Shown here: positions 1 to 54,065 of the stretch, one piece after another | How positions within the stretch are numbered: position 1 is the stretch's first letter | How the letters are laid out: every line of letters begins with the position of its first letter | Assembly: GCA_021734865.1 (NCBI GenBank) | Contig: JAIPIC010000003.1 | Span: 1 to 54,065, forward strand | DNA length: 54,065 nt | Direction of reading: 5' to 3' | Source of the DNA: Candidatus Woesearchaeota archaeon | GTDB lineage: Archaea; Nanobdellota; Nanobdellia; Woesearchaeales; JAIPIC01 | The notes under the pieces: generated by a model | What the model was told of the DNA's origin: nothing | Database searches by the model: none | The model's input: only the letters and a program-made list of their open reading frames with translations | Position numbers and translations under genes: made by a program

Positions 1-183
1 AAAAACTGCTCACACGAGTCCATACTCGTATGTGCAGTTTTCTGTTACCAAAAATTGCCTATGGATTGTGAGCCCTTTAATACGGAGAAAAGCAAAGCTT
101 TTCTTGTACACAAAAATGCTTTACATTTTTATTGTACCCATGCTTTAGCTTGGGGTCAGGGCGAACGGCAATTTTTGTTATAT
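1..183. repeat. Modular hairpin-array repeat, copy A (right-hand part)
   Basis: 48-183 is near-identical to 27891-28025, and 1-67 is identical to 53999-54065. Contains stems AAAACTGC..GCAGTTTT, AGAAAAGC-aaa-GCTTTTCT, AAAAATG..CATTTTT and the enclosing pair CAAAAATTGCC/GGCAATTTTTG. Confidence 0.9.
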
Positions 184-2512: not shown

Positions 2513-2528
2513 TATACAGTAATATAAA

Positions 2529-3170: not shown

Positions 3171-3208
3171 ACAAACATATATTAATCAGTAGTTTATATA
3201 ATTAACTG

Positions 3209-3772: not shown

Positions 3773-4071
3773 ATGATCTCAATCTGAGAAGAATTACCGC
3801 AGTAAAAGAACGTTCTTATCCTGTCAAAACGTTGAGATTGACTAAATATCCTCTTAATTTTTTTAAGCTGCCGTTTTGCCTTTGCTATCCTAAACGAGCA
3901 TTTGACCTCAAAAATGTCAACCTTCTTACCTCTGATACCCATCAAATCAATTTCGCCTTTTAATCTTTTCTTCTGAGAATAAAGTGGCAGATGTGTATGT
4001 ACAGAATCATATTGATCCTCAATGGATCTCTTCAGTTTGTCCAGATAACGATCGTGTTTATCTATTTTCAA
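3769..4071 (-). CDS. Small PD-(D/E)XK nuclease-fold protein (YraN/UPF0102-like)
   Basis: GEIDL...IFEVK motif, followed by AKRQL. Confidence 0.65.
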   Translation of the reverse strand: MKIDKHDRYLDKLKRSIEDQYDSVHTHLPLYSQKKRLKGEIDLMGIRGKKVDIFEVKCSFRIAKAKRQLKKIKRIFSQSQRFDRIRTFFYCGNSSQIEII

Positions 4072-4238
4072 AACACCATTTTAGGGTTGAAATGACTTAC
4101 TGACTCAATTAATATATTTAAAAGTAAACTAATATATATACTTTACTTGTTGCTGATTAGATTATTCTATCAATAACTAATTCATGTTCGAGAATGATAT
4201 CAAAATTATGTAATTAACAATAAAATCGCATGAGGAAT

Positions 4239-5639: not shown

Positions 5640-5723
5640 TTTCTTCCATATCTTTGGGTCTTAGTCAACAAATCTTGAATATCTCCAATATTTTATAATA
5701 CAATTTTGATATAATCTAATGAA

Positions 5724-7178
5724 TTAAGGTGCGTTCTTTTCAATATTAAATGCAACATTCAGTAGTTTCTCTTCACAAAAATGGTCTCCTGAAAGCATAA
5801 CTCCTACTGGCAATCCGTCAATCATTCCGTAAGGGATATTGATATGAGGCAGTCCAGCCAAATTTGGGCCGACCGTAAGTACATCCATCATGTAATTTTG
5901 TAAAACAGACAGATTCTTTATCTCGTCGAATCTTGGAGGCAGAACAGGCATGGTCGGAGTCAGCAGAGCATCAACATTCTTGAAGGCTTTCTTGTACTCA
6001 TTGATGATAACTGTCCGTACTTTCAAAGCTTTGAGATAATATGCATCTCTGAAACCTGCCATTCGTGCGAAAGTCCCTAGTATAATTCTCCTTTTAGCTT
6101 CTTGTCCAAAATGTTTTGATCTTACTTTTGTGAAATACTCATTGAAATTACCCTTTAGGGATTCATGTTTACCATAACGCATCCCGCAGTATTTGGCAAG
6201 ATTTGTTGAAGCTTCACATACTGCTATGATATAATATGAAGGGAGAGCATATTCTGATGGAACAGCTAGAGATATCTCTTCAATTATGGCTCCTTGAGCT
6301 TTTAAATCTGATGCACATTCATTCACTTTATTCTTGATGGATTCATCCACACCTTCACCAAGGCTTTCCTTTACGATACCAATCTTCATCCCAGATATCG
6401 GTCTGTCAATATTTTTTGTATAATCAATGTTTTTTGAACCATCATCGGACTTCTCTTTACTATTTGCTGGATTATAAGATGTTGAATCTTTTTCATCATG
6501 CCCTGCGATAATACTTAGCATAAGTGCACAATCCTCGACAGTCTTGCCAATTGGCCCAATTTTATCCATTGAATTTGCATAATCCAAGAGCCCGTATCGT
6601 GATACTAATCCATATGTTGGTGTTAATCCAACAACTCCACAAAAACTGGCTGGAGACGCTATAGAACCACCAGTGGATTCTCCTAATGATATGTGTGGGA
6701 AATCAGCAACTTGTGCCATACCTGCACTACCCCCACTGCTACCGCCTGCTGCTCTCTGGATATCGAAAGGATTAACAGGTTGTTTAATACCAATACCAGT
6801 GTTTGTCGAAAAGCTTCCAAATCCAAACTCATCTTGAGTAGTTTTACCAATTATTATGGCCCCCTCAGAGATGATCTTATTGATTACAGTAGCGTTAAAA
6901 ACGGGCTTATAACCAGACAATATTCTTGAAGAAGACCTAGTCTCAACACCCTTGACAGCAATACAGTCCTTAACACTGACATAAACTCCAGCTAATCTGC
7001 CTTTTGGTTTTATCGAAACATTATTTGACAACTCTCTTGCCAGACCAGTAGATATCGCTCCCAAATAATGATATTTATCATTTAGAGAATCCAGATTGCT
7101 TAGTACCTCTTCTGTTTCTTTTTTTATGTCAACAGAACCATTACTGACTCTTTCAATATATTCAATTGTTGATTTCAC
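5724..7178 (-). CDS. gatA: Asp/Glu-tRNA amidotransferase subunit A
   Basis: Amidase signature GGSSGGSA, GESTGGSI, RRIILGTF; lies between gatC and gatB. Confidence 0.96.
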   Translation of the reverse strand: MKSTIEYIERVSNGSVDIKKETEEVLSNLDSLNDKYHYLGAISTGLARELSNNVSIKPKGRLAGVYVSVKDCIAVKGVETRSSSRILSGYKPVFNATVINKIISEGAIIIGKTTQDEFGFGSFSTNTGIGIKQPVNPFDIQRAAGGSSGGSAGMAQVADFPHISLGESTGGSIASPASFCGVVGLTPTYGLVSRYGLLDYANSMDKIGPIGKTVEDCALMLSIIAGHDEKDSTSYNPANSKEKSDDGSKNIDYTKNIDRPISGMKIGIVKESLGEGVDESIKNKVNECASDLKAQGAIIEEISLAVPSEYALPSYYIIAVCEASTNLAKYCGMRYGKHESLKGNFNEYFTKVRSKHFGQEAKRRIILGTFARMAGFRDAYYLKALKVRTVIINEYKKAFKNVDALLTPTMPVLPPRFDEIKNLSVLQNYMMDVLTVGPNLAGLPHINIPYGMIDGLPVGVMLSGDHFCEEKLLNVAFNIEKNAP

Positions 7179-7459
7179 ACAGCACCAGGCCCCCTGAAGA
7201 AACCATCATTCTTATGCTCTGTATTCTCAAGAGCCTCTTCTTGATTAAGACACTTACCTGGTGTGTCATCCCTCAATGCGTTTTTTATTTCTATTGGATG
7301 GAAGCTTGGTTCAACATCATCTGTATTGATCTTATCTAGAACAGTGAAAAACTCCAACACTTCCTTTAATTGAGGAGTAAACTCTTTCACTTCCTCATCT
7401 GTTAGTTTTATTCTCGAAAGTCCTGCGACTTTTATTATGAGATCATGATCAACATTCAT
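7175..7459 (-). CDS. gatC: Asp/Glu-tRNA amidotransferase subunit C
   Basis: 94 aa, VA.LSRI, LRDD, GFFRGP; overlaps gatA start. Confidence 0.93.
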   Translation of the reverse strand: MNVDHDLIIKVAGLSRIKLTDEEVKEFTPQLKEVLEFFTVLDKINTDDVEPSFHPIEIKNALRDDTPGKCLNQEEALENTEHKNDGFFRGPGAV

Positions 7460-7604
7460 AAGCCATTATGTAATAGCTTGTTTTTTATAAAACTTTCTTG
7501 CAGTTAACACTAGTTAACACTTATATGAATTGTTTTTTATCATCTGATACACAAATAAATAGAGATATTTTTATCAAAGTATACAAATATTCAAGTATAC
7601 AAAA

Positions 7605-7652
7605 AAGTATAAACCAACTTAAGTATAAACCAACTTAAGTATAAAACAACTT
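7605..7652. repeat. 16-bp tandem repeat x3 (AAGTATAAACCAACTT) in the divergent gatC/pilin intergenic region
   Basis: Units at 7605, 7621 and 7637 (one mismatch); also AGTTAACACT x2 at 7502-7521. Confidence 0.85.
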
Positions 7653-7705
7653 ATTATACCTATCAATAGGCTAATATGAAACAATAATAAAGTTTATATA
7701 TGTAA

Positions 7706-8218
7706 TTGTCCAGTACAATATTGAATAACCAGATCATAAAAGAGGTGCAGCATATCGGAAACAAAAAAACTAAAGCACAGTATTCCATGGAACTCATAAC
7801 AATCATGACGGTCGGTGTGTTTCTCATCTTGCCCATCCTCTATATGTTCTATTATTATTCTCAGTCATCTGTTGAAAGTGTATCATCAGATATCGTCCTA
7901 ATGATTGGAAACGAAATTGTAAATAATGCAGAGATGGTTCAGTATTTTGGCGACCCTTCAAAGGTATCTTTTGAAGTAGGAATGCCTGATGGAATAGATG
8001 AAATTGCAATCAATCGGCATAATGACACTGTGTATGAAATACTTTTTATTAGAAAAACTAATGATAATGAAAATAGATCAGTCTATGCATTTACCTCTTC
8101 TGTTCCACTTAATGGTTCTTTTGGAGAAGCATCAATTAGTGCAGGAAAAAAGACTATAGTGTGTCAGTCACTTAAGAACGCTGATGATTTTAAGTATGTT
8201 AATGTGAGCATTTATTGA
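7706..8218 (+). CDS. Class III signal peptide (pilin-like) protein; true start probably ~7745
   Basis: KTKAQ-YSMEL followed by a hydrophobic helix. Confidence 0.75.
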   Translation: MSSTILNNQIIKEVQHIGNKKTKAQYSMELITIMTVGVFLILPILYMFYYYSQSSVESVSSDIVLMIGNEIVNNAEMVQYFGDPSKVSFEVGMPDGIDEIAINRHNDTVYEILFIRKTNDNENRSVYAFTSSVPLNGSFGEASISAGKKTIVCQSLKNADDFKYVNVSIY

Positions 8219-8332
8219 ACATAATTATCTAAAATTTACCTTTCCTAATCCTAACTAGTCTAGTTTAAATGTCTATCTTTGGTTCATTCCACAACAAAAC
8301 ATTTAAATATTTGTTTCCTAATAATCTATATT

Positions 8333-8791
8333 ATGTACACAAAAAGGGGGCAAACTTTTTCACTTGATCTCATTATCGGATCAGTTGTATTTATAGTATT
8401 ACTGATTATATTTTTATTATACTCCATGTCAAATGTTGAGGATGACCAGACAAAAATTAACCTCGAGCAGGATGCTTCTGTTGTTGTTGGTAAAACTTTA
8501 ACAACATCTCGCCCAACACCAAACGGGTCATTTATCGTTGGAAATACAATAAACAGTTCGCTTCTTGCTAGTCTCACAGGCTATACTTATGCAGAACTGA
8601 AAAGTATGTATGGAAGTCGTTATGATTTTTGTATGTATTTTGAGGATAACAAAGGCGACTTGATTGATCTTGACACAAGGCCCGAGTACGTTCAGTATTC
8701 GATAGGGTCTCCAACTGCTAATTTTTCGATATTCTATGCTGACGGCAGATACAAAGAAACACTTAAATGTGGCGAGTCAAAGCATATTTGA
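8333..8791 (+). CDS. Class III signal peptide (pilin-like) protein
   Basis: MYTKRGQ-TFSLDLIIG followed by a hydrophobic helix; start moved to ATG 8333. Confidence 0.78.
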   Translation: MYTKRGQTFSLDLIIGSVVFIVLLIIFLLYSMSNVEDDQTKINLEQDASVVVGKTLTTSRPTPNGSFIVGNTINSSLLASLTGYTYAELKSMYGSRYDFCMYFEDNKGDLIDLDTRPEYVQYSIGSPTANFSIFYADGRYKETLKCGESKHI

Positions 8792-8886
8792 ATTAATTCT
8801 GGAATTAAAGCAAAATTTACTAAACAGGCATTTATGCTTTAATTTGACATACAATCTTAAATATTATTTTGTACTTACTAGTCTTG

Positions 8887-10119
8887 ATGTCAATTTCAGA
8901 TGAACTTAAAAGGCGTGATATTGAACTTCTAGCGCCAGCATCAAATTGGGCAATGCTTATGGCAGCATTAAATAATGGTGCGAATAGTATTTATTTTGGC
9001 CTAAAAGAATTAAACATGAGGATAACAGCCCAAAATTTTAATCTTAAGGATATAGGCAAAATCGTAAAAAACTGCCATGAAATAGGAGCCAAAGCATATC
9101 TTACTTTAAACACAATAATCTATGATGATGAAATATTGCGTCTTAAGACTGTCTTAAAAAGTGCAAAGAAGTCGGGAATCGATGCTGTTATTGTATCTGA
9201 CATGGCGGCTATTTCCCTGTCCAAAGAAGCAGGGATACCCATACATATTTCGACTCAGGCATCGATATCCAATAGTAATGCTGCAGCAGAATACGCAGAA
9301 TTGGGCGCATCAACAATAAATCTTGCTAGAGAACTATCTCTTGAACAAATAAAGAAGATTAATGCAAATCTGAAACCTGGTTTTCCCAGAGTTGAAGTAT
9401 TCTGCCACGGGGCAATGTGCGTATCAATATCAGGCAGATGTTTCTTGAGTCAATTTGCCTATAATAAATCAGCCAACAGAGGTGACTGTATACAACCATG
9501 CAGACGTGAATATAAGATTACCGATCCGGAGACAGGACAAAAATTTGACTTGGCAAATAATTATATCATGTCGCCAAAGGATCTCTGCACAATTGAATTT
9601 ATCGATAAAATTCTTGAGACTGGTGTGGATGCTTTGAAAATTGAGGGACGAGCCAAGCAGCCAGAATATGTTGCTGTAGTCACAAGAGCATACAGGCAGG
9701 CGATTGATCTTTGGAAACAAGGAAAATTGACAAAAAAGAGCAAAGAGTCCCTTAAGGAAGAAATGCTGGAAGTGTACAATAGAGAATTCCATTCAGGATT
9801 CTATTTCTCAAAACCGCTTAAAGAGTTCACCGATGATTATGGGTCAAAATCAAGAACATATAAGTTATTTATAGGTAAAGTGATAAATTATTACGCAAGG
9901 AGCCAAGCTGCTGAAATTAAATTGAATACTGGAACCCTTTCGATAGATGATAAAATATACATAATGGGTCCAACAACAGGAGTCATAAAGCTGGCCATTA
10001 AAAGCATTCAGATTGACAACAAGAACGTGATTATCTCAAATAAAGGAGAAATTGTGGGTATTACTGTACCACAAAAAGTCAGGAAAAATGATGACGTATA
10101 CATCATAAAACAGAGATAA
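8887..10119 (+). CDS. U32 family peptidase (tRNA/rRNA hydroxylation TrhP/RlhA-like)
   Basis: ELLAPA, HISTQAS, HGAMCVSISGRC, NRGDCIQPCRR, LKIEGR. Confidence 0.93.
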   Translation: MSISDELKRRDIELLAPASNWAMLMAALNNGANSIYFGLKELNMRITAQNFNLKDIGKIVKNCHEIGAKAYLTLNTIIYDDEILRLKTVLKSAKKSGIDAVIVSDMAAISLSKEAGIPIHISTQASISNSNAAAEYAELGASTINLARELSLEQIKKINANLKPGFPRVEVFCHGAMCVSISGRCFLSQFAYNKSANRGDCIQPCRREYKITDPETGQKFDLANNYIMSPKDLCTIEFIDKILETGVDALKIEGRAKQPEYVAVVTRAYRQAIDLWKQGKLTKKSKESLKEEMLEVYNREFHSGFYFSKPLKEFTDDYGSKSRTYKLFIGKVINYYARSQAAEIKLNTGTLSIDDKIYIMGPTTGVIKLAIKSIQIDNKNVIISNKGEIVGITVPQKVRKNDDVYIIKQR

Positions 10120-10297
10120 TATATTCAAAACCCAACTGATGATCTCTGTATTTTAAACTCACTGAAGGGTCGTGTCTCTGGAACTTAAATTACTTTTAGT
10201 CTGATTTCTTTGATTTATCAATAATTATTGCACCGAAAGCTATATAAATACTAAAATAATGAAATATCTTATTTTTAACAGTAAAAGAGGTGTTATA

Positions 10298-10852
10298 ATG
10301 GCATATTCAAAAAAAGGATCCCTTAACCTATCAATTAATGCTATCGTGGTGCTAATTCTTGCTATCACAATGTTAGGTCTGGGATTGACATTTATTACTA
10401 AGATTTTTGGGCAGGCTACCGGAGGATTAGGAGATGCTTTTGAAGGCATTGATAAGCAAAGGGTGGAGAAGTTAGAAAATACGTGTGACCAAGAAGTATG
10501 TTTAGAAAAATCAAAAATTGAATTGCAAAAAGGTAAAGAAACTGATTTGTATATATTGTTTAATAACGCGCTGTCGAGTGACGTGACCTTTGACCTTACT
10601 GGAACAGTCGATTGTCACGAGCTTGGTACAGGGGCACCCGATCAATGTGGAATAAACGATGCAGATTCTGTTGTTAATATGAGAGTAGATACTTCTGTGT
10701 TGGTTAAGAAAGGGGGTCAGCGGGCACTCCCAATATATTTTGAGGCAAAACCGAGCGCAACAAAGGGTACTTATATTTTTAATTTGGATATTACACAGAG
10801 TGATATGGCCTATGATACTATTGAATCTGTTACGGTCAATGTCAATATATAG
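10298..10852 (+). CDS. Class III signal peptide (pilin-like) protein with Ig-like domain
   Basis: SKKG-SLNLSINAIVVLILA; RBS GAGGTG at ~10287. Confidence 0.8.
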   Translation: MAYSKKGSLNLSINAIVVLILAITMLGLGLTFITKIFGQATGGLGDAFEGIDKQRVEKLENTCDQEVCLEKSKIELQKGKETDLYILFNNALSSDVTFDLTGTVDCHELGTGAPDQCGINDADSVVNMRVDTSVLVKKGGQRALPIYFEAKPSATKGTYIFNLDITQSDMAYDTIESVTVNVNI

Positions 10853-11083
10853 GTGATCATGATGAAAAAAAGACTTACTCAAGGTGAAGAATTTGAGATT
10901 CTCAAGCTTGTTATTGACAAATTCCTATGGTTGGGATTTGGTATCATGGCACTTGGACTGTACAGGATTTTTGCAGTTTCTACAGTAAATATTTACAGGG
11001 AGTTCTCCTTTATGATCGCTGGTGGAATAATCTTAGTAATATTGCTGTATTTGCTGGTTAAAGAATATGAATTGTTGAAGTGA
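10853..11083 (+). CDS. Small two-TM membrane protein
   Basis: 76 aa, two hydrophobic helices, co-oriented in the cluster. Confidence 0.75.
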   Translation: MIMMKKRLTQGEEFEILKLVIDKFLWLGFGIMALGLYRIFAVSTVNIYREFSFMIAGGIILVILLYLLVKEYELLK

Positions 11084-11115
11084 AGTTTGTGAAAGCAATA
11101 GAGATTGGAAAAATC

Positions 11116-12519
11116 ATGAAGTCCAGGATAATTTTTAATTTATTTGTTTTTTTTATTCTTATTTTTTCACTTTTTCTCACCGGGTGTGGTGGAGAGTGCG
11201 AGACTATAGGTGATTGTCCAAATAAGGAATGTTATACTAAGAGATGTACATCAGATAAAAAATGTGAATACGATGTAAAATCAGACTGCTGCGGTAATAA
11301 TAAATGTGAAGATGGAGAGAATAAATGTACTTGCGGTACTGATTGTGGTCAGTGTTCAGGCTTAGTTGGTGAATATCTAGAAATGAAATGCACATCCGGA
11401 AATGAATGTGTAGAGTTAATTAAAGATTCAATACATAAAGTGGTTACAGATACGAAAAAACTTAAGGATGTTGAAATTGATATAGTCACAGAATACAGAC
11501 AACCCTTTAATGTTGACACAGACGAAATCAAATTATCAATAAAGTCAAATCAGGACCTTACAACAAAAACAAATGTCATGGTGGACAGCATACAATTGGT
11601 CTTAATCAAATCAGGAGCAAGAAATGTGCTTTATGAAACTGATGTTGGTCTGGGATTATACAATAAGGATTCTGAGATTGATTTTTCTTTACCTCTCAGA
11701 TTTTCATCTGAAGAACCCGAAACAGAATACCTAACTTTGGCTATCGCTTACAGTTATGATGAGTTTAAGAGTAACAGTAAATCAAAAGTATCTGATAGTA
11801 TCGATATCCGATTGAAAGAAAAGATAACTCTCGTAGATCCTGAAGGCGAAACCTGTCCATCATCATGTGATGATGACAACGACTGCACAAAAGATATTTG
11901 CAGCGAAGCAACAGGGTATAAATGCAAACATGAACCCCAGACTGACTGTGCGTCAAATGGAATATGCGAAACTAATGAGAATAAATGTACTGCTTCATTC
12001 GACTGTGGCCCATGCAGCGGTCCATATCTATCGACAATGGAGCTTGAATGCGATCAAAAAATATGTTATAAAAAAGTAATCTCAAGCCAGACAAAGACTC
12101 AAACACAGGAAAAATCTCTGTCCGTATGTGAATTGGATATACGAATCTCATACACTAACCCTTTTGATGGCAAGAATGACAATATTTCTCTTGATATAAG
12201 CATGCTTAATGCAAATAGCATATTTGTATCTCCTTTTGTAATAAAAGACATTGAATTATACGAGGGTAGCATATTGATCGGAGAGACTGTTGTTGAAGGA
12301 AACCTTGCTGGTCCAGGCAAATCTATTAATGATATTAGTGTCCCCCTCAATATCCCTTTTGAATTTGACGAAATGGAAAAAGCCATTAGCGTCAAAATCA
12401 ATTATGAATACAGCAAGTTACAGAACCAGGAGAAGGTTGGACCTTTTAGGGATTCCTTCTCAATACGGTTGGCAGATAAGATTGTATTTGCAAATACAGG
12501 TATTATTGAAGGAAGATAA
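11116..12519 (+). CDS. Cysteine-rich surface lipoprotein with internal duplication
   Basis: Lipobox-like LTGC; two Cys-rich blocks (CE.GENKCTC..DCG.CSG / CETNENKCTA..DCGPCSG), each followed by a beta-rich domain (Y..PF...D.I.L.I; DS..IRL..KI). Confidence 0.8.
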   Translation: MKSRIIFNLFVFFILIFSLFLTGCGGECETIGDCPNKECYTKRCTSDKKCEYDVKSDCCGNNKCEDGENKCTCGTDCGQCSGLVGEYLEMKCTSGNECVELIKDSIHKVVTDTKKLKDVEIDIVTEYRQPFNVDTDEIKLSIKSNQDLTTKTNVMVDSIQLVLIKSGARNVLYETDVGLGLYNKDSEIDFSLPLRFSSEEPETEYLTLAIAYSYDEFKSNSKSKVSDSIDIRLKEKITLVDPEGETCPSSCDDDNDCTKDICSEATGYKCKHEPQTDCASNGICETNENKCTASFDCGPCSGPYLSTMELECDQKICYKKVISSQTKTQTQEKSLSVCELDIRISYTNPFDGKNDNISLDISMLNANSIFVSPFVIKDIELYEGSILIGETVVEGNLAGPGKSINDISVPLNIPFEFDEMEKAISVKINYEYSKLQNQEKVGPFRDSFSIRLADKIVFANTGIIEGR

Positions 12520-12573
12520 CAAATTTGCTTGAACAAACACTATTCGTACCATCAATATTTGTGAGATCAGAAA

Positions 12574-13113
12574 ATGAGAAAGATGAATAAAAAGGGACTG
12601 GAATTATCAATTAATTTTATTGTTATACTTGTCATATCAATCGCAATATTTGGTATGGGAATCTATTTTGTATCGACTATCTTTATAGGATCAAGCGATG
12701 TGATTAAGACCATATCTCAACAGGAAGAAACGCAACTTGAGAAGCGGCTAATGACTGGCAGAGAAAAAGTGGTCATACCTATTGAGACTAAGACCATGAA
12801 AAGAGGAGAGGCAGTCGTTTTTGGAATTGGAATATTCAATAATATGGGAAGCACTAAGACTTTTTCAGTTGATGTGACACCAGGACCAATGTATAAAGAA
12901 GATAGGTCTATTGAACTTACACCCACGCCTGGAGTGGTGACAGAGAATCCCGTTGATCAGATTGTGAAGAACAATGAGTATAAAATTGCTAGACTTACTG
13001 TAAGAGCACCACCAAATACTGATAAAGGAAGATATCAAATTAACATTCAGGTCAAGGATGATACTGGTGCAGATTATGATACAATCAGATTGATATATAT
13101 TAATGTTGAATAG
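12574..13113 (+). CDS. Class III signal peptide (pilin-like) protein with Ig-like domain
   Basis: NKKG-LELSINFIVILVIS; paralogous to 10298-10852 (KG.Y..N, YDTI). Confidence 0.8.
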   Translation: MRKMNKKGLELSINFIVILVISIAIFGMGIYFVSTIFIGSSDVIKTISQQEETQLEKRLMTGREKVVIPIETKTMKRGEAVVFGIGIFNNMGSTKTFSVDVTPGPMYKEDRSIELTPTPGVVTENPVDQIVKNNEYKIARLTVRAPPNTDKGRYQINIQVKDDTGADYDTIRLIYINVE

Positions 13114-13158
13114 TATATCTGTTTAGAAGATGGGTAAACTTTGAAATACTTATTTTGG

Positions 13159-14991
13159 TCATATCCTTCTGATAACATCAAATATTTTCTTCTCGGACAG
13201 TCCGATTTCATCCAGTAGGGTAGACCTCGAACCATGTTCAATGAAGCGATCGGGAATTCCAAGTGTTTTGATTTTAACCTTACTGTCACTCATTTCTTCA
13301 AGTATTGAACTCGCAAATCCTCCTTTGCATGAATTCTCTTCGACAATAATGGCCTTACCAATTCTTTTGATATAATTGATTATCTTTTTGTCCACAGGCT
13401 TGATGAACCTTGCATTGATTAAGCCAACAGGTACCAAATGCGAATCATTGTACCGATTAACTGCGTTTCTTGCGGGCTTGACCATAGAACCCACTGCAAT
13501 GACTACTGCTTTCTTGCCACGTACAAGGAGCTCAGACGACCCTTTTTCGATATACTTTTTTCTTGGAGTCTTCTCTGGTTCCATCCCCTTTGGATATCTG
13601 ATAGCTACGGGGCATTTGTACTTTATTGCAGACCAAAGAAGATTTCGCAGTTCATCCTGATTTCTTGGAGAAGCAATGCACATATTTGGAATATGCCTAA
13701 GATATGAAATATCAAATGCACCATGGTGGGTGGGTCCGTCTTCGCCGACCAGACCCGATCGGTCTATAGCTAAGATTACCGGTAGGTTCTGCAAAGCGAC
13801 ATCATGTATTAATTGATCATACGACCGTTGAAGAAAAGTAGAATATATTGCAACGAATGGGATCAACCCTTCTTTAGCCATGGCTGCTGCAAATGTAACT
13901 GCATGTTGTTCAGCAATACCAACATCAAAAAACCTGTTAGGATACTTCCTTCTGAATTCTGATAGACCAGTACCTTCACACATTGCAGCAGTCACTGCAA
14001 CAACTTTCTTATTACTGGCTGCAATTTTGCATAGCGTATCGCCAAAAACTGAACTATAGCTAATCCCTTCTTTCTTTTTAGATTTCCCATTTGTCTTGTC
14101 AAACAATCCAATTCCGTGAAACCTTGTTGAATCATTTTCTGCATGGGAAAACCCCTTTCCTTTTTTTGTCTTAAGATGTATCAAAATAGGACCTTTTGCT
14201 TTCTTGGCCTCCTTAAATGAACGTATAATCTGTGGGATATTATGTCCATTAACAGGACCAATATATTCTATTCCTAACTTCTCGAAAAGAAAATTAGGAC
14301 TCGCTGCTCTCTTTAGATTATCTTTCAGTTCAAGAAGCTCAGATTTGTATGCAGGTTTAACCGATTTTAATAGGTTATTTATTGTATACCTTACCTGTCT
14401 GTAAATCTTAGTCTTGGTTATTCTTCCAGTATATTTTGATAATGCCCCAACATTATTAGAAATTGACATCTTATTATCATTTAGGACAATAATAACCTTA
14501 GTCTGAAGATACCCAATATTATTTAATCCTTCAAATGCCATCCCTCCTGTAAGAGCACCGTCCCCAATTACACAGATAACCTCATGTTTCTCTCCTTTTA
14601 GGTCTCTAGCTTTTGCAAAACCTGCTCCGATTGACAAAGAAGTACTGGCATGACCAACATCAAACTGATCGTGTTTGCACTCAGAAGTTTTAGGGAATCC
14701 TGATATCCCTCCTTTCATCCTGAGGCTGTTGAAACGATCTTTCCTGCCCGTCAGAATCTTATGAGCATATGCCTGATGCCCCACATCCCAAATAAACTTA
14801 TCTTTTGGACTATTAAATAAATAATGCATAACAACTGTAAGTTCGACAACACCAAGAGAAGAGGCAAGGTGTCCCCCAGTATTACACACTGAATTGACTA
14901 AAAATTCCCTAATCTCACTGGATAAAATCGATAGCTCGCTAATTTTGAGCTTTTTCAAATCATCGACATTATTTATCTTTTCAATAATCAT
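13159..14991 (-). CDS. dxs: 1-deoxy-D-xylulose-5-phosphate synthase
   Basis: GGHLASSLG, WDVGHQAY.HKILTGR, GDGALTGGMAFE, DVGIAEQHAV, GEDGPTHHG. Confidence 0.96.
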   Translation of the reverse strand: MIIEKINNVDDLKKLKISELSILSSEIREFLVNSVCNTGGHLASSLGVVELTVVMHYLFNSPKDKFIWDVGHQAYAHKILTGRKDRFNSLRMKGGISGFPKTSECKHDQFDVGHASTSLSIGAGFAKARDLKGEKHEVICVIGDGALTGGMAFEGLNNIGYLQTKVIIVLNDNKMSISNNVGALSKYTGRITKTKIYRQVRYTINNLLKSVKPAYKSELLELKDNLKRAASPNFLFEKLGIEYIGPVNGHNIPQIIRSFKEAKKAKGPILIHLKTKKGKGFSHAENDSTRFHGIGLFDKTNGKSKKKEGISYSSVFGDTLCKIAASNKKVVAVTAAMCEGTGLSEFRRKYPNRFFDVGIAEQHAVTFAAAMAKEGLIPFVAIYSTFLQRSYDQLIHDVALQNLPVILAIDRSGLVGEDGPTHHGAFDISYLRHIPNMCIASPRNQDELRNLLWSAIKYKCPVAIRYPKGMEPEKTPRKKYIEKGSSELLVRGKKAVVIAVGSMVKPARNAVNRYNDSHLVPVGLINARFIKPVDKKIINYIKRIGKAIIVEENSCKGGFASSILEEMSDSKVKIKTLGIPDRFIEHGSRSTLLDEIGLSEKKIFDVIRRI

Positions 14992-14993
14992 CT

Positions 14994-15125
14994 TTAAGAA
15001 GCAATATTATAACTACTGATTTTAATCCCTTGATGTCTAAGATGTTCAACTATCTCATTGTTGAGTTTGATCATTGAAACCAGCATTAATTCATCAATCT
15101 CCTGAATGCCCTCAAGGTTCTCCAT
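14994..15125 (-). CDS. Putative 43-aa small protein upstream of dxs
   Basis: ATG at 15125 (MENLEGIQEIDELMLV...); stop 2 nt before the dxs start. Confidence 0.4.
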   Translation of the reverse strand: MENLEGIQEIDELMLVSMIKLNNEIVEHLRHQGIKISSYNIAS

Positions 15126-15356
15126 CGGAAAAAAGAGAGCTATAATTTTATATAAACTTATTGTTGCACATTTGGTTGGTACTGAATTACATAGTTTTCT
15201 ATCGAACAACTTAAAGGAAGGCACCTTCTATTATAATTTAATAGATATAGGTGGGTCCAAAGAGGACAATTAAATAGCCAAATTAATACAAAACTTTATA
15301 TATTAGTTTTTTTGTATTCGTACTATTGGGGAGTTTAAAAAAAGAGGTGTAGGTTA

Positions 15357-16649
15357 ATGACTAGAGATAATGGATATATTAGCACTCATAAGGAAAAAAT
15401 ACCATTCCGTTTAAGGATTGGATTTGCCTATATATTTCTTGTTGTGCTACCTATTATATATTTCATTACTAATTCAGCCCCTTCAAATGTTTATATATAC
15501 TGGTCTCTGGTTGTGATAATAGCATCATCCAATGTTTTTTTCTTTATGTTCATAACAAAATTTGCAAGTGATTCAGAAGAATTGAGTAATAAGTTCCATA
15601 TGCTTGCAAAGGGGAATTTCCAAGCTGATACTTCCATAAAAGAGGGAGAGACACAAATTGGTAGGATGGTAAATTCATTCCGACGAATAAAGAATTTCTT
15701 CCAAGAGCTTATAAAAACAATTGGCGTCAATTTTGAAAAGATGAGCCGTGTCTCACAGGACTTAATAACAGCTTCTGGAGAAGTAAATGCTTCAACTGAA
15801 GAAATTTCTTCAACTGTTCAGGAGATTGCGCGTGGAGCTCAAAGACAATCAAAACAGGTCAATCAGATTGCACACAATGTTAAAACATTTACTGATCAAA
15901 TAAAAAATGTGGCTGAGAAAATGACCACAGTTTCAAAATCAACTGAGCTTGCGAATAAGAATGCTTTGGAAGGAAATAAATCAGCACAGGAAGCAAATGC
16001 TAAGATAATGGCTATTAAAAATACTGTCAGTAATTCCGGAAAAGTTGTGCAGAGTCTGGGTGAGAAAAGTAAAGAAATTAACAAGATTATTGAAGTCATT
16101 GATGATATAAGCGAGCAGACTAATATGCTTGCACTGAATGCAAATATAGAAGCAGCGAGGGCAGGAGAAGCTGGTCGTGGGTTTGCAGTTGTCGCAGATG
16201 AAGTCAGAAAGCTAGCAGAGCAGTCTCAAAAAGCTACACAGCAGATATCAACTCTTATTACAGATATCCAACAGTCAACATCAAATGCAGTTGATACAAT
16301 GGCGTCTGGCGAAAAGCATGTTGAGGAAGGTGCTGAGGTCATCAATAACGCTTTAATCAGCCTGGAAGGTATATCAGCGATAATCAATAATATTAACAAT
16401 ATGACCTCAGAGGCTGAAAACATTATCAATGGTCAGGTTAAGATAGTTGATCAGATCAACACCTCCATGAATGAAATTAGTGCAATTACGGAGGAAAATG
16501 CAGCAGGAAGCGAAGAAGTTTCAGCTTCTATCCAGGAGACGACCTCAACCATACAACAACTCACAAATTATTCTACTGATTTATCAAAATCGATAGAGGA
16601 TATGACTAATGTCCTAAAACAATATGGTTTTGAAGTCAATACAAAATGA
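15357..16649 (+). CDS. Methyl-accepting chemotaxis protein (2 TM, HAMP, signalling domain)
   Basis: [35 protein letters not shown] hairpin tip; RBS GAGGTG. Confidence 0.95.
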
Positions 16650-27396: not shown

Positions 27397-27726
27397 TTAT
27401 TTCTTGCTGAATTTAAAGCTTATAGCACAATTGCCTTCCTCATGGGCCATTGATTTGTGCAATGGATTGTTTGGGGTACATTCCCTTTTGAATAATGGAC
27501 ATTCTGCTGGCTCACGAGCTCCCAGTAAAACATCATTACATTTGGCCTTATCGTTCTTTGGATCAAGAACTGATGATACTGGACGCATAATGAATTCATA
27601 TATATCAGAAATTAAAGGCACTTTCATTTTATCAAACCACTCATAGATAGTATCATTAGATATTAACTGGTGGATGGTAGTATTTATCCTTTTCGGAAAA
27701 AATACGGGTTTCATTGAAAATGTCAC
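27397..27726 (-). CDS. HypD C-terminal-like small Cys protein or fragment (start uncertain: 27627, or 27714 inside the repeat)
   Basis: C-x12-C-x6-C-x16-C with ECPLF..ECTP.NP and EG.CAI matching the HypD C-terminus. Confidence 0.65.
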   Translation of the reverse strand: MTFSMKPVFFPKRINTTIHQLISNDTIYEWFDKMKVPLISDIYEFIMRPVSSVLDPKNDKAKCNDVLLGAREPAECPLFKRECTPNNPLHKSMAHEEGNCAISFKFSKK

Positions 27727-28025
27727 AGGAATTATTCAGAACAAATATGTTCTGGATATTTGGAAATGTACATTTCTGAACATTTTAGGTGGGTTTAATA
27801 CCCCCCCTAGGGGTGAAATTTTTAATACAAAGAAATGCATATGCATTTCTTGTAGCATTTCTTGTACAAAAAGTGTACCATTTATCCGTCCCAAAAATTG
27901 CCTATAACTGAGAGCCCATCAATGCGGAGAAAAGCAAAGCTTTTCTTGTACACAAAAATGATTTACATTTTTATTGTACCCCATGCTTTAGCTTGGGTCA
28001 GGGCGAACGGCAATTATTGTTATAT
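27680..28025. repeat. Modular hairpin-array repeat, copy B (apparently complete), inside the hyp operon
   Basis: Shares blocks with 48-183 and 53873-54060; includes the palindrome AGAAATGCATATGCATTTCT (27831-27850), GAAATGTACATTTC and CAGAACA-aata-TGTTCTG. Confidence 0.88.
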
Positions 28026-28037
28026 GGACAGTGGATC

Positions 28038-29075
28038 TTATTTGTACGCATAGCTAATTGCACAGCTTCCTTCTTTTGATACCATACATGGTCCTATTGG
28101 GTTCTCTGGAGTGCAGGCACGACCAAACAATGAGCATTCGTCAGGGTTGATTATCCCTTTTAGAACCTCACCACATCTACATGCTGAATTCTGCACTGTT
28201 TTTACAGTCATAATGACCTTAGAATACATTTTCTTAGCATCCAGTTCTTTATTTCTAATATTAAGTCCGGAATCTGGAATAATCCCCAGACCTCTCCATT
28301 CACTGTCAGCAGCATAAAAAACATCTTTTAATACTCGTTGTGCTTTTGGATTTCCTTCTTCTCTGACCCCTTCAGGATACGCATTGACGACTGTTTGTTT
28401 GCCTTCAGACAACATTTTACACAGAGCAAAAATTGATCTCATTACACGCTCAGCACTGAACCCAGCAATTGCTTGTGCTACTTTGAATCTCCTATAAGGC
28501 CTGACACCTATAATAGTTGACACATGCCCGGGATTAAGAAAGCCATCGATATGCACTTCACCTTCAAGCAGAGCTTCCATTGCAGGTGGGACCAGCTTAT
28601 GGCAGCTGTAGACACAGACCCCTTTTTGCAGCAGATATGCTGTCATCGGAGCTGTCGTCTCAAAACCAACCCCAAAAAAAACAATATTTGGGTGTTTTTC
28701 TCTGATGGCAAGAACCTCACTAGCTGAATAGACCTCGAATACATTTCCTTTCTCTGCTTTCACACTCTCAAGACTTGAATCAGTCCCAGGAACTCTCATC
28801 ACATCTCCATATGTGGCCACAGGAACACCGCTACGTGCAATACCGATAATATTATCAATATCTGACTGAGCAGAAACACACACAGGACAACCTGGTCCGG
28901 AGATTAACTTTAAGTTTTTAGGCAGAATATCTCTGATTCCATACTTTAAAATTATATTAGTGTGACCACCACAAATCTCCATAATGGTCCTATTCCCAAT
29001 ATTTAGACTCTTAATCTTTTGAAGATAATATTCAATGAGTTTGTTTTCATTTATCATATCTTCATTCATAATCAA
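28038..29075 (-). CDS. hypD: Hydrogenase maturation protein HypD
   Basis: MEICGGHT, GPGCPVC, GFETTAP, PGHVS, C-terminal CRC...C...C...GPCMVS.EGSC. Confidence 0.96.
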   Translation of the reverse strand: MIMNEDMINENKLIEYYLQKIKSLNIGNRTIMEICGGHTNIILKYGIRDILPKNLKLISGPGCPVCVSAQSDIDNIIGIARSGVPVATYGDVMRVPGTDSSLESVKAEKGNVFEVYSASEVLAIREKHPNIVFFGVGFETTAPMTAYLLQKGVCVYSCHKLVPPAMEALLEGEVHIDGFLNPGHVSTIIGVRPYRRFKVAQAIAGFSAERVMRSIFALCKMLSEGKQTVVNAYPEGVREEGNPKAQRVLKDVFYAADSEWRGLGIIPDSGLNIRNKELDAKKMYSKVIMTVKTVQNSACRCGEVLKGIINPDECSLFGRACTPENPIGPCMVSKEGSCAISYAYK

Positions 29076-39829: not shown

Positions 39830-39970
39830 GGTAAAGTCAACTAACGTGGGTTTGTGTAAATTCTTCTTTGCAAAAAGGATTCATCGTTGGGTTTCTCCGT
39901 CGATGAATTTTGACATAAATCTTGCTTTTTACAAAGAAGAACCATTTAACCCACTTAAGTTGACTTTACC
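39830..39970. mobile_element. 141-bp MITE, IS1-like ends
   Basis: TIRs GGTAAAGTCAACT(AAC/TAA)GTGGGTT match at 21/23; flanked by the 9-bp direct repeat GGTTGGAAA (39821-39829 and 39971-39979); no transposase. Confidence 0.88.
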
Positions 39971-45486: not shown

Positions 45487-45545
45487 CAATGCTATAATAA
45501 CCAATGTTATAATAACCAATGTTAAAATAACCAATGTTAAAAATT
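45487..45545 (+). repeat. 15-bp tandem repeat x4 overlapping the endonuclease IV start codon
   Basis: CAATG(C/T)TA(T/A)AATAAC units with ATGs at 45489, 45504, 45519 and 45534. Confidence 0.85.
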
Positions 45546-46364
45546 AAAATTGGCCCATCTGGCACAACAGGATTGAGCTATGAAGAAGCATTTTCATATC
45601 TAAAAGCAAATGGGCTTACTGCCCTGGAAGTGCCTTTTACATATGGCGTACGTATGAAATCTGATCAAGCCAAGGATATTGGGTACCTTGCAAATAAATA
45701 TGGTATAGGACTTTCAGTTCATGGCCCTTATTATATTAATCTTGCATCACTTGAGTCAGATAAAGTCGAAGCATCGAAGCAAAGAATATTGCATTCATGT
45801 GAGATAGCAAATGAATTTTCGACCGTGAACTCTGACCAGGCAGACATCCAACCAGATAAAATTAACATAATATTTCACCCCGGATTTTATATGGGTAGAG
45901 ATCCAAAAATTGTATATGATTTAATAAGGAAAGAAATTAGTGAACTGATTCAGATAATTGATGAAAAACAATATAACGTAAGGCTCTGCCCTGAAACGAC
46001 CGGCAAACCTTCTCAATTTGGCTCGCTTGAAGAACTGTCCAGGCTCATCAAGGACACCGACTGTGGAATATGCATAGATTTTGCACATTTATGGGCTAGA
46101 AATCAAGGGCAGAAAAATTTTGATACGATCATGCAAAATGTTGCAAATCTGAAACTAGAAAAAATCCATTCTCATTTCTCCGGTATTGAATACGGACCAA
46201 AAGGTGAGAAAAAACATATTCCGTTTTCTCCAGACTATCTTAATGAATTTGTTAATTCAATATCCCTATTGTCAGAGAAAACAAAACAAATTACTATTAT
46301 TTGTGAATCTCCAGAGCCACTGGAAGATGCGATGTTCTTAAAAAACACAATTGTATCCACATAA
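45534..46364 (+). CDS. Endonuclease IV-like AP endonuclease (TIM barrel)
   Basis: SVH.PYYINL.S, FHPGFY, ETTGK.SQFG, CIDFAH, H.HFSGI.Y...GEK.H, ICESP. Confidence 0.9.
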   Translation: MLKIKIGPSGTTGLSYEEAFSYLKANGLTALEVPFTYGVRMKSDQAKDIGYLANKYGIGLSVHGPYYINLASLESDKVEASKQRILHSCEIANEFSTVNSDQADIQPDKINIIFHPGFYMGRDPKIVYDLIRKEISELIQIIDEKQYNVRLCPETTGKPSQFGSLEELSRLIKDTDCGICIDFAHLWARNQGQKNFDTIMQNVANLKLEKIHSHFSGIEYGPKGEKKHIPFSPDYLNEFVNSISLLSEKTKQITIICESPEPLEDAMFLKNTIVST

Positions 46365-53648: not shown

Positions 53649-53855
53649 ATTGTCCTTACTACCAGATATATAAAAAATAATATTATCAGGATTAATCCAT
53701 GATTCTTATTTATCCTTGAAAATTTATAGAACAATCCCAACAATATCAATGCAGTAAAAATCTTGAATGGCAAATCATAGACTAATATTACAGCAGGAAC
53801 GCTATAGCTGGATATAAATGCTCCAATCCCAAGGCAGAGCATTGGATTTGTTATT
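53624..53855 (-). pseudogene. 3' fragment of a Na+/Ca2+ (YrbG-like) antiporter, cut by the hairpin repeat
   Basis: ITNPMLCLGIGA (alpha-2 repeat missing its GSN start), DLP, G..L...F..Y; the upstream sequence is repeat DNA. Confidence 0.7.
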
Positions 53856-54065
53856 GAAAATCTCGCTTGCGAGGGTTTCATTGGGATTCACATACCCCGC
53901 ACTTTAGTGCGAGATTTTCAATACAGAGAAATGCATATGCATTTCTTGTACAAAAAATGTACCATTTTTCCGTACTGATAATTGCGATTATCAGTTCCAA
54001 AAACTGCTCACACGAGTCCATACTCGTATGTGCAGTTTTCTGTTACCAAAAATTGCCTATGGATT
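53852..54065. repeat. Modular hairpin-array repeat, copy C (left-hand part, runs off the window)
   Basis: 15-bp inverted repeat 53852-53866/53909-53923; CGCAC-ttta-GTGCG; AGAAATGCATATGCATTTCT; ACTGATAAT-tgcg-ATTATCAGT; homologous to copies A and B. Confidence 0.9.

Follow-up and report, generated by a model that had tools for sequence, protein, structure and literature searches.

The stem-loop arrays in the stretch of DNA analysed here (the window, 54,065 nt) are probably copies of a non-autonomous, PATE-like derivative of the IS200/IS605 family, which would be mobilised as single-stranded DNA by a Y1 TnpA acting in trans. The parent type, judging from the sequences, appears to be the IS200-like insertion sequences of Woesearchaeales-type DPANN archaea. 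Gene-less IS200/IS605 derivatives are a known kind of mobile element, and the window loci add a variant, not another kind. The window is contig C78, one of 99 contigs of a 2.01-Mb archaeal MAG that is 87% complete and whose assembly breaks at repeats. The host is a small freshwater archaeon, and relatives of its IS200 TnpA are found in Woesearchaeota, Pacearchaeota and Nanoarchaeota MAGs. DPANN archaea of the Woesearchaeales type, small genomes notwithstanding, carry a widespread family of gene-less IS200 derivatives.

The initial annotation listed three related loci in the window; we count two, as positions 1-67 are identical to 53999-54065. One element type accounts for both 1-181 (its right part) and 53855-54065 (its left part), which are cut because each end of the contig falls within a repeat (corrected outer bounds: the left part begins at 53855 and the right part ends at 181). 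The remaining locus, element B, spans 27715-28023 instead of 27680-28025, the earlier start being 35 nt too early and the end 2 nt late. We confirmed that these stretches are non-coding and nearly all stem-loops: the element is 309-330 nt long, no ORF of at least 80 aa lies inside it (ORF list of the window), and the sole ORF overlap concerns its first 27 nt, from the frame 53624-53881. Its architecture is TTAT, domain 1, a linker of 3-4 nt, domain 3 and TTAT, where domain 1 has a 12-15-bp closing stem with AATACC and a hairpin, and domain 3 an 11-14-bp closing stem with (A)ATACC and a hairpin. In this genome extra 'TAC + AT-rich two-hairpin' modules decorate the element.

Element B lies on the + strand and is flanked on the left by TCAT (27711..27714; TTAT in other copies), a presumed target or transposon-adjacent motif. 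Its domain 1 (27715..27825), with an outer stem TGAAAATGTCAC / GTGAAATTTTTA around extra hairpins and TACC-CCCCCTAGGGG, is the rare B-type left module, which has five copies in the genome. The inter-domain module block (27826..27891) consists of TAC and AAAGAAATGCATATGCATTTCT (carrying here a 12-nt tandem duplication, GCATTTCTTGTA), TGTAC and a second hairpin, and a TCC linker that we regard as ancestral. Domain 3 (27892..28019) has an outer stem, CAAAAATTGCC / GGCAATTATTG, that covaries between genomes; inside are the two-hairpin module (GGAGAAAAGC..GCTTTTCT, ACAAAAATG..CATTTTT) and then the right-end hairpin TACC-CCATGCTTTAGCTTGGG. A transposon-encoded TTAT, the presumed right cleavage site, occupies 28020..28023.

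The second element, also on the + strand, has TTAT as its left flank (53851..53854, presumed target motif) and a domain 1 (53855..53920) whose outer stem TGAAAATCTCGC / GCGAGATTTTCA surrounds TACC-CCGCACTTTAGTGCG (53893-53911), a hairpin common to IS200-like ends. Its inter-domain block (53921..54046) opens with ATAC and a two-hairpin module (53925-53975, ending CCGTAC), followed by a second block (53976-54046) made of TGATAATTGCGATTATCAG and a long hairpin, AAAACTGC..GCAGTTTT, ending TGTTAC; blocks of this second type are absent from copies C15, C34, C67 and C55, with the junction at TAC. Domain 3 begins at 54047 and is cut by the contig end at 54065 (this piece is identical to window 49-67). 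The right part, cut by the contig start and likewise on the + strand, comprises the end of the inter-domain block (1..48, with the long hairpin, ...CTGTTAC), domain 3 (49..177, outer stem 49-59 / 167-177) and the terminal TTAT (178..181). Within domain 3, TAC at 81-83 is followed by the two-hairpin module (84-137) and the right-end hairpin TACC-CATGCTTTAGCTTGGGG (about 135-155). The identical 67-nt ends could suggest a circular 54-kb replicon; we rejected this as the likeliest reading, because the window is one of 99 contigs and about 35 contig ends lie in the same repeat, and because the Na_Ca_ex fragment at 53651-53854 is not continued past position 181.

The family extends well beyond the window: across the 2.01-Mb genome BLAST gives 55 loci, the assembly holds at least 36 right ends (22-mer match, at most three mismatches), and at least 12 kb of the MAG is occupied. 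About 35 of the 55 loci touch a contig end (count from the BLAST table); the breaks that these elements cause are relevant to binning and closing such genomes. The ends are sharp, in the order flank-TTAT, then TGAAAATCTCGC...GGCAATTTTTG-TTAT, then flank. TTAT stands before all 27 outer left ends of the main type (position -5 is variable) and GTTAT closes all 32 complete right ends, with unrelated sequence after it; the motif is non-palindromic and its orientation relative to the element is constant. Three older copies have a left flank unlike the terminal TTAT: TCAT (element B), TTTT (C67) and CTAT (L078). Structural subfamilies with the same ends occur at unrelated sites (e.g. a 212-nt form found at five loci with one common internal junction). 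Sharp, conserved ends belong to the two-domain element as a whole, between its TTAT motifs, and not, as first proposed, to each TAC-hairpin; perfect hairpins of at least 8 bp preceded by TAC are at background level outside the element loci (12/761). Since the flanking and the terminal motif are the same, a 4-bp target duplication is indistinguishable from an IS200-type insertion. The interior of domain 1 is inverted in six to seven copies, which places the TACC hairpin on the other strand and counts against the main reading.

Folding as single-stranded DNA gave z = -6.2 for window 27715-28025 and z = -10.95 for a full copy (L024:1363-1682), with none of 100 shuffles as good in either case. Two structural claims of the initial annotation stand: eight of the 11 TAC trinucleotides of the full element lie at the 5' foot of a stem, and the modules are nested in an enclosing stem, CAAAAATTGCC/GGCAATTTTTG, that is seen in the fold and covaries between genomes. 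Across eight elements from eight genomes pairing is kept in 91.4% of cells vs 80.5% in shuffles (0/500 reach this value; slid controls give 34-51%), and both-side pair changes in three helices number 14 where 6.4 are expected. G·T and A·C mismatches are balanced (about eight vs eight cells in alignment A1, which has partly misaligned rows), so we dropped the argument about the strand of folding.

The idea that the arrays are substrates of an HUH (Y1) enzyme fares well as regards the element type (non-autonomous, PATE-like, with key hairpins that are those of IS200-like tnpA ends) and fails as regards RAYT membership. In seven published genomes the right-end hairpin of tnpA elements is formed by TACCCCGCACTTTAGTGCG, the 19-mer of domain 1, which in 14 other published genomes of the order lies within gene-less two-domain elements; the core of these elements shows compensatory stem changes. 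The reversed pattern, used as a control, has no match in 401 genomes. The right-end hairpin of a tnpA element in genome G375, ATACC-CCAACCTTTAGGTTGGGG, is the domain-3 hairpin of gene-less elements in genomes G269 and G139, and the left end of an insertion sequence in G066 (TTAT then ...GGGGTTTAAAACC-CCGCACTTTAGTGCG) resembles domain 1. TTAT is the left flank at 14 of 15 published loci in relatives (the exception is CTAT at L078; the count is from unfiltered loci), with element boundaries in other genomes drawn from fold and analogy, not from multiple copies.

At the ends of the insertion sequences, the identity of the base two positions 5' of TACC follows the cleavage motif, G going with TCAT and A with TTAT. 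GA+TACC goes with xTCAT at 20 of 21 parsed left ends and at 25 of 29 right ends as parsed, or 26 of 29 if L027 is re-read as TTCAT (the automatic parse gave GTTAT, which lies within GGGGTTATTCAT); this tally omits 11 left and three right ends without a parse. AA+TACC goes with TTTAT at one left and two right ends, and the gene-less elements, having AA+TACC with TTAT, fit the same rule. IS608 reads its TTAC target via a guide 5' of the hairpin foot, according to the available part of PMC5027513. Such a correlation of guide (G/A) and motif (C/T) over about 50 natural IS ends gives a clean test of the IS608 guide model on natural sequences from a distant lineage. In IS608 itself the right guide/motif pair is GAAT/TCAA. 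A misfit to the rule is that in most copies in this genome a module shifts the 5' neighbour of the right-end hairpin from AATA to TGTA. The distance from the terminal TTAT to the hairpin (22-38 nt in the element vs about 8 nt in IS ends) also counts against the main reading.

As the initial annotation had it, the mobilising enzyme is absent from the window (no Y1 match); Y1 genes are found elsewhere in the genome, at three loci (C90, C31 and C84). The C90 gene is intact and encodes an IS200-type TnpA (NCBIfam transpos_IS200, 106.6 bits vs a cut-off of 55), whereas the C31 gene has an in-frame TGA and the C84 gene is cut by a contig end. Relatives of the C90 TnpA (34 loci, 46-59% identity) have GATACC and a hairpin with the loop CTTTAG at both ends. 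The left end at C90 (TTAT then TG..AATACC-hairpin) is similar to, but not identical with, that of the element; an exact match to the element's end hairpins is lacking at all three Y1 genes, and no elements lie beside them. Neither TnpB nor an IscB partner domain was found. A Y1 gene is detectable in only seven of the 14 published genomes with gene-less elements, and none was detected in G291 (16 hairpin copies, 85% complete) or G069 (nine copies, 82% complete). Over a survey of 401 genomes, 11 of 25 pattern-positive genomes have a Y1 gene vs 115 of 375 others, which is no clear enrichment; the co-occurrence carries no information either way, in part since contig ends truncate multi-copy tnpA.

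By homology with IS608, movement might proceed as follows. On single-stranded DNA (e.g. the lagging-strand template) a Y1/HUH TnpA from elsewhere would bind the TACC hairpins, and the AATA just 5' of each hairpin would act as a DNA guide for TTAT. Cleavage of the top strand 3' of the flanking TTAT, and again 3' of the terminal one, would release a strand that forms a circle and is pasted 3' of another TTAT. The two closing stems, if the fold is right, would place both cut sites side by side. Gain and loss of modules, the flip-flop of the domain-1 interior and the truncated neighbour genes may be secondary events at hairpins and between copies.

PATEs are gene-less IS200/IS605-family derivatives known from Haloquadratum and, through later work, from Halanaerobium and Geobacillus (PMC3119063, PMC7290912, PMC10055086, as far as the available excerpts of these papers go). 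The window element resembles what those excerpts describe in being short, gene-less, multi-copy and mostly intergenic, with the hairpin ends of an IS200/IS605-family element and presumed mobilisation in trans by TnpA. Measured against the same excerpts it differs in that its parents appear to be tnpA-only IS200-like elements, not of the tnpB/IS1341 type, with no omega-RNA partner; its flanking and terminal motifs are the same (TTAT) and the right cut site is far from the hairpin; a long closing stem of its own surrounds each end hairpin, which yields two domains; AT-rich two-hairpin modules are nested within it; and the host is a DPANN archaeon. A two-domain design, with one stem per TnpA hairpin and cut sites at the stem feet, goes beyond the PATE descriptions in the published text available. 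We found no description of such elements in DPANN archaea in the portions of the literature searched (including PMC13343696), and the PATE supplements may list closer precedents.

IS608/IS200 elements belong to the IS200/IS605 family, use a Y1 HUH TnpA and move by 'peel and paste' on single-stranded DNA (PMC5027513, available part). In common with them, as portrayed there, the window element has a subterminal hairpin near each end and a conserved tetranucleotide both before the left end and at the right tip. It also has a presumed guide by the hairpin foot that matches the cut site, and its termini share no inverted repeat beyond an AAAAT core. It shares with them the guide base (G/A) that tracks C/T in the motif, and unlike them it is without tnpA, has TTAT in place of TTAC/TCAA, and carries extra closing stems. 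Modular small repeats are known elsewhere, as the pneumococcal BOX (boxA-boxB(n)-boxC) and the Rickettsia palindromic elements. Copies of the window element likewise vary in the number of internal hairpin modules, and a module occurs in a coding region (the tnpA tail of relatives); unlike BOX and Rickettsia elements, to which they have no sequence relation, the modules here are part of a frame derived from IS200, with NTAC (or NTGC) at their borders.

Three other explanations of the whole element were weighed. If the loci were structured non-coding RNA genes, or an element that mainly yields structured RNA as omega-RNA-bearing PATEs do, the very strong fold would be accounted for, and the compensatory changes in three helices over eight genomes fit RNA as well as single-stranded DNA. 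A query for RNA among the sequencing runs listed none, a result that is neutral as to expression. We nevertheless consider this reading highly unlikely, and the alternative of a structured RNA in the initial annotation found no support: Rfam over the whole window gave no match at the gathering score (the best sub-threshold match has 19.9 bits and E=0.68, vs a gathering score of 43, and all such matches, with E>0.6, are at chance level), and there is no TnpB/IscB partner domain. The key hairpins belong to transposon ends, where TnpA binds them as DNA, the loci behave as mobile DNA (variable sites, sharp TTAT ends, adjoining truncated genes, assembly breaks), and a domain-1 interior in both orientations would be odd for an RNA gene. 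In annotation such loci should carry the label of a repeat or of a remnant of a mobile element instead of that of an ncRNA gene. A classical MITE, mobilised by a DDE transposase and having T[G/A]AAAAT ... ATTTTTG as its short terminal inverted repeats and a 4-bp TTAT target-site duplication, is very improbable. It would agree with TTAT on both sides, the mostly intergenic location and an AAAAT core that both termini share in inverted orientation, but the inverted repeat is merely about 5-7 nt and imperfect, the internal hairpins are homologues of IS200 ends, the left flank departs from the terminal motif in element B, C67 and L078, and TTAT in one orientation (27/27 here, 14/15 at published loci) is unexpected from a symmetric cut-and-paste enzyme.

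REP/BIME/REPIN sequences, with their RAYTs, occur in Enterobacteria and Pseudomonas as a GTAG motif plus an imperfect palindrome read by a Y1 enzyme, in mosaic arrays that often lie just after genes. The elements could by analogy be domesticated repeats that serve the host (as terminators, in mRNA stability or as protein binding sites) and are maintained by a RAYT-type Y1 enzyme encoded in single copy, a reading to which we give the least probability of the three. Units of a short conserved motif plus palindrome in arrays, and the persistence of the family across many families of the order, would suit it, as would the position of the right ends: 22 of 35 face the 3' end of a gene (the neighbouring gene is in opposite orientation in 22 cases and in the same orientation in 13, in the 99-contig MAG), and in four a stop codon overlaps the terminal TTAT. 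Yet the Y1 proteins score as IS200 (REP_Tyr_transpos of NCBIfam gives 34.4 and 39.1 bits vs a cut-off of 80), elements flank neither a Y1 gene nor a RAYT gene, the units start with (A/G)TAC(C) and have no GTAG, and copies abut truncated genes. The conserved unit is a two-domain element of 150-330 nt with defined ends, much larger than a REP of 20-40 nt. The REP/RAYT membership suggested in the initial annotation fails, and the PATE-like IS200 derivative is retained as the main reading.

Two features of the modules seen at the outset were reproduced: a two-hairpin module occurs twice per element (about 80% identity; secondary BLAST matches q71-123 vs q228-282), and copies differ by whole hairpin blocks, as seen in 24 aligned copies. 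The extra 'TAC + two-hairpin' modules are gained or lost as units of about 52 nt, and all but a few indel junctions in this genome are at TAC. Paralogous IS copies in G139 and G269 differ in whether they carry modules of 52-54 nt, and there one lies inside the coding region, in the tnpA tail. The proposal that units insert into each other is upheld to the extent that such modules come and go among paralogous IS copies with junctions mostly at TAC; against it, no solo modules occur outside elements in this genome, and deletion at microhomology explains the differences equally well. It is quite conceivable, if somewhat short of an even chance, that the module differences reflect only replication slippage or deletion between short direct repeats (TAC, TTGT) at the feet of hairpins, together with tandem duplication, the frame still being IS200-derived; this concerns the modules only and is compatible with the main reading. 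Microhomology is present at every junction (TAC, TACCCC, TTGTAC), copy C33 is deleted at TTGT and not at TAC, GCATAT is lost in three copies, and element B has its 12-nt tandem duplication, all of which, like the lack of solo modules, slippage would explain. On the other side, paralogous IS copies of G139 and G269 differ by a 52-54-nt unit at three separate positions, and paralogous modules occupy two places within one element, for which insertion or copying of a discrete unit is the easier explanation.

A bolder view, which we hold to be doubtful, is that the blocks of about 52 nt ('NTAC, hairpin 1 - GTAC - hairpin 2 - xxGTAC') are minimal, cargo-free IS200-type mobile units. Each would consist of a pair of hairpins with a DNA guide inside and a cut motif at the terminus, and would insert 3' of TAC where a TnpA-bound hairpin has its foot; smaller transposons would thereby colonise the ends of transposons and give arrays. 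The G139/G269 modules have the same design (ATGC, then ... GCAC ... GTGC), and in both module versions the linker between the hairpins and the terminal motif are reverse complements, a match that hints at a co-varied guide-target pair. If this is true, the blocks would be the smallest transposable units known and a natural system for TnpA target choice; gain and loss of modules is in any case a possible route to very small TnpA substrates.

The neighbours of the elements include truncated genes. A second hypD, a remnant encoding the C-terminal ~65 aa (27397..27603, - strand), abuts the left side of element B, and a complete hypD (28038-29075) lies on the opposite side. At the second element, a C-terminal fragment of a Na+/Ca2+ exchanger domain (53651..53854, - strand) stops exactly at the left boundary. 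The elements are mostly intergenic: open frames of at least 100 codons reach 10 of 93 element boundaries vs 67% of 2000 random positions (the left-end list included inner arms of flipped copies, so only the overall contrast counts).

No empty site or insertion polymorphism was found in the contigs of three lake-water runs on L060 or in metagenome scans; the 40 relatives available are of the same order only. The three runs (X1-X3, one study, Logan contigs) were compared with L060, and their contigs are of the same strain (X2 with low cover); none skips an element. An X1 contig of 23,273 nt crosses a 93-nt mini-copy unchanged, and contigs end at a 212-nt copy. Two joints were seen on L060, with sides of 32 letters (3766 to 16357) and 21 letters (9382 to 9473); the former links two element copies and is read as a repeat artefact. 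A metagenome scan with the 22-nt right end gave 0 matches, and one with a 28-nt domain-1 motif gave six contigs, all carrying gene-less core elements with no tnpA between the ends.

Two copies of a gene-less hairpin repeat of ~330 nt (domain 1, an inter-domain block, domain 3 and a terminal TTAT) are found in the window. The initial annotation had counted three loci (1–183, 27680–28025 and 53852–54065), but positions 1–67 are identical to 53999–54065 (repeat family D3) and the contig, which in full is the window (C78), begins and stops within this repeat, so the end stretches are the left and right parts of one element type, cut at the contig ends. The left part starts at 53855 (left flank TTAT) and the right part runs up to 181; joined in a script, they give a 330-nt element with the architecture of uncut copies elsewhere in the genome (BLAST of the element: C43:19793–20125, C75:1872–2195, C95:1039–1372 and C52:13284–13614). 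The locus proposed at 27680–28025 is a real element (element B), with its bounds moved to 27715–28023 (left flank TCAT). The assembly (G000; 2,011,050 bp, 99 contigs, 87% complete) carries archaeal SSU rRNA.

These loci are a real, high-copy, gene-less element family derived from IS200. BLAST of the element against the assembly gives 55 loci (12,276 nt summed), ~35 of which reach a contig end by a hand count of the table, and coverage by matches falls sharply at both boundaries, going from 34–45 to 1 over a few bases. A left probe has 33 matches: 27 are outer left ends, all with TTAT upstream and a variable base before it, and the remaining six, with GTAT upstream, are the inner arm of copies with an inverted domain-1 interior. 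Among 33 listed right ends, 32 are complete and finish in GTTAT followed by unrelated sequence (the other is cut by a contig end); 36 right ends are found in the genome at ≤3 mismatches. The TTAT flank is the same as the TTAT tip, so a TTAT duplication and a TTAT target plus a TTAT tip look alike. In a lake-water metagenome run (X1), the summed contig depth over one element (L060:16353–16564, on G000:C23) is 1687–3977 against 19.6 in its flanks. This depth is spread across 13–17 contigs and should not be read as a copy number, but it puts the element (or near relatives carried by other organisms in this sample) at an abundance well above the 36 copies in the assembly.

The stem-loop make-up first noticed by eye is borne out by folding as single-stranded DNA: z = −6.2 for element B and −10.95 for a full copy, with 0/100 shuffles as good in either case. 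In the predicted fold, TGAAAATCTCGC/GCGAGATTTTCA closes domain 1, a hairpin block lies between the domains, and CAAAAATTGCC/GGCAATTTTTG closes domain 3, followed by an unpaired TTAT. Covariation is also seen in an alignment (A1) of eight elements, each from a different genome. Over its three helices, with 31 pairs in all, 91.4% of cells pair versus 80.5% in shuffles (0/500 attain it) and 34–51% in slid controls, and both sides changed in 14 pairs versus 6.4 expected. Every element extracted from the order, with ends found by a pattern demanding T[TC]AT, folds as domain 1, ~4 nt, domain 3 and TTAT.

No mobilising enzyme had been seen in the window, and all three Y1_Tnp (HUH transposase) matches of the genome are indeed on other contigs (C90, intact; C84, cut by the contig start; and C31); no TnpB domain was found. 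On C31, the IS200-type tnpA (L010; 13454–13804) has an in-frame TGA where its orthologue in G066 (L066) has an Arg codon, and is probably a pseudogene. Of the two HUH systems suggested, the C90 enzyme fits the IS200/IS605 type (106.6 bits, cut-off 55) and not the REP-associated type (34.4 bits, cut-off 80). Its left end reads TTAT^TGCAAAG..AATACC plus a hairpin with loop CTTTAG (^ marks boundaries and junctions). No tnpA with ends identical to the element's is found among the Y1 loci of G000. TnpA relatives at 34 loci (46–59% identity; titled Woesearchaeota, Pacearchaeota or Nanoarchaeota MAGs, plus a few other labels) share one end design, TTCAT^TACAT..GGATACC plus hairpin on the left and GATACC plus hairpin plus ~8 nt up to TTCAT^ on the right, and the two key hairpins of the element follow the design of these ends: ATACC-CCGCACTTTAGTGCG and GTACC-CCATGCTTTAGCTTGGGG. 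At one locus (L034), an IS200-like left end is in tandem duplicate (TTAT^TACATTGTAAGAATACC plus hairpin, twice).

The right pair of IS608 is GAAT/TCAA. In our loci, IS ends were parsed by regex at 32 loci (11 left and three right ends gave no parse): GA before TACC pairs with xTCAT at 20/21 left ends and at 25/29 right ends as parsed (26/29 with L027 re-read from GTTAT to TTCAT), and AA before TACC pairs with TTTAT at one left and two right ends. The same rule is kept by the C90 left end (AATACC, TTAT) and by related gene-less elements of the order (mostly AATACC, TTAT). There are exceptions: in most G000 copies a module occupies the place ahead of the right-end hairpin, so that TGTACC stands there, and domain 3 of L082 has GATACT with TTAT. 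We infer the mechanism of the element by homology: in IS608, the guide that recognises the target TTAC is AAAG, located 5′ to the foot of the hairpin, and transposition takes the lagging-strand template (PMC5027513).

A 19-mer, TACCCCGYACTTTAGTGCG, sought with ≤1 mismatch in 401 genomes of the order, is present in 26 (counting G000 and two unpublished), and its reversed control has no match in any of the 401. It is multi-copy in G150 (17), G291 (16), G139 (11), G069 (9), G375 (7) and G339 (5). In seven published genomes (class 1: G279, G150, G339, G362, G010, G066 and G093) it is the right end of a tnpA element, ...GGA-TACCCCGCACTTTAGTGCGGGG-AGGTTCAT^, and in 14 (class 2: G100, G291, G377, G139, G269, G020, G186, G050, G011, G035, G193, G260, G345 and G069) it belongs to a gene-less two-domain element resembling that of G000; loci of G334 and G375 were left outside both classes. 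TTAT precedes the first base in 14/15 published class-2 loci in the raw print (L078 has CTAT) and in all four further loci from six metagenome contigs. The IS left end of G066 matches domain 1 of class-2 elements, and the IS right-end hairpin of G375 matches their domain-3 hairpin. A Y1 gene was detected in only 7/14 class-2 genomes, a point against the IS200-derived reading, and in 11/25 pattern-positive genomes versus 115/375 others. The class-2 core equals a 212-nt form of G000, so the 330-nt form is this core plus modules.

Variation was read from 24 aligned G000 copies. The two-hairpin module (~52 nt) does occur twice per element, as proposed, with ~80% identity (BLAST) between the two. 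The proposed gain or loss of whole hairpins holds for most differences, which are whole blocks with junctions at TAC (CCG^TAC, CTGT^TAC, TTAA^TAC and ATTG^TAC); the exceptions are a copy on C33 deleted at TTGT, three copies lacking GCATAT in the first hairpin, and a 12-nt tandem duplication in element B. The 212-nt form (domain 1, TCC, domain 3) is found at five loci with a single common junction, forms of 257–264 and 93–157 nt are also present, and the B-type left module is rare (five copies in the genome).

Whether units insert into each other, as the initial annotation suggested, is a question on which the evidence is divided. In paralogous IS200-like copies of G139 (L092, L094) and G269 (L096), three AT-rich two-hairpin blocks of 52–54 nt differ (alignment A2), one of them separating the Y1 domain from the conserved C-terminal tail and truncating TnpA; one reads ATGC^hp-GCAC-hp-ACGTGC^ (hp, hairpin), in parallel with ATAC^hp-(T)GTAC-hp-xxGTAC^ of G000, G186 and G139. 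Class-2 copies in G139 and G269 likewise differ by modules. On the other side, TAC-preceded cases among perfect hairpins of at least 8 bp number 23/159 inside element loci and 12/761 outside, thus there are no solo modules in G000. These patterns support discrete units gained or lost, which both insertion and deletion would fit equally. In copies on C13, C33, C50, C51, C52 and C94, and partly C17, the interior of domain 1, which lies between 15-nt inverted arms, has the opposite orientation (flip-flop); these 6–7 flipped copies are a point against the reading as an IS200-derived mobile element. Empty sites had been looked to as a check, and none was found among genomes of the same order, contigs of lake-water runs or a metagenome right-end scan. 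Among the IS families of archaea, IS200/IS605 is reported to be the most widespread (PMC13343696), and PATEs (its palindrome-associated gene-less derivatives) and PATE-like elements are already described; our literature search returned no account of such elements from DPANN hosts.

Genome-wide, most elements lie between genes: open frames of at least 100 codons reach 10/93 boundaries, a set whose left ends come from a partly polluted list, versus 67% of 2000 random positions. Past the right end, the next gene runs on the opposite strand in 22/35 cases and on the same one in 13/35; in four, the terminal TTAT is overlapped by the TAA stop of that gene. Element B lies 14 nt past the stop of a complete hypD (28038–29075, minus strand); on its other side it abuts a C-terminal remnant of a second hypD (27397–27603, minus strand; 40% identity over 65 aa), beyond which is a hypE-like gene, and this hypD pair suggests that a rearrangement or replacement took place where the element lies. 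The left end of the second element adjoins a C-terminal Na_Ca_ex (Na+/Ca2+ exchanger) fragment (53651–53854, minus strand) that stops exactly at the boundary; its N-terminal part is absent throughout the assembly, whose sole intact gene of this family is on C6. Elsewhere in the window, a 23-nt inverted repeat (39830–39852 and 39948–39970; 91% complementary, 95 nt apart) lies between two minus-strand ORFs, and a 15-nt tandem repeat, CAATGYTATAATAAC (45487–45542, ~3.7 copies), lies before or over the start of the ORF at 45534–46364.
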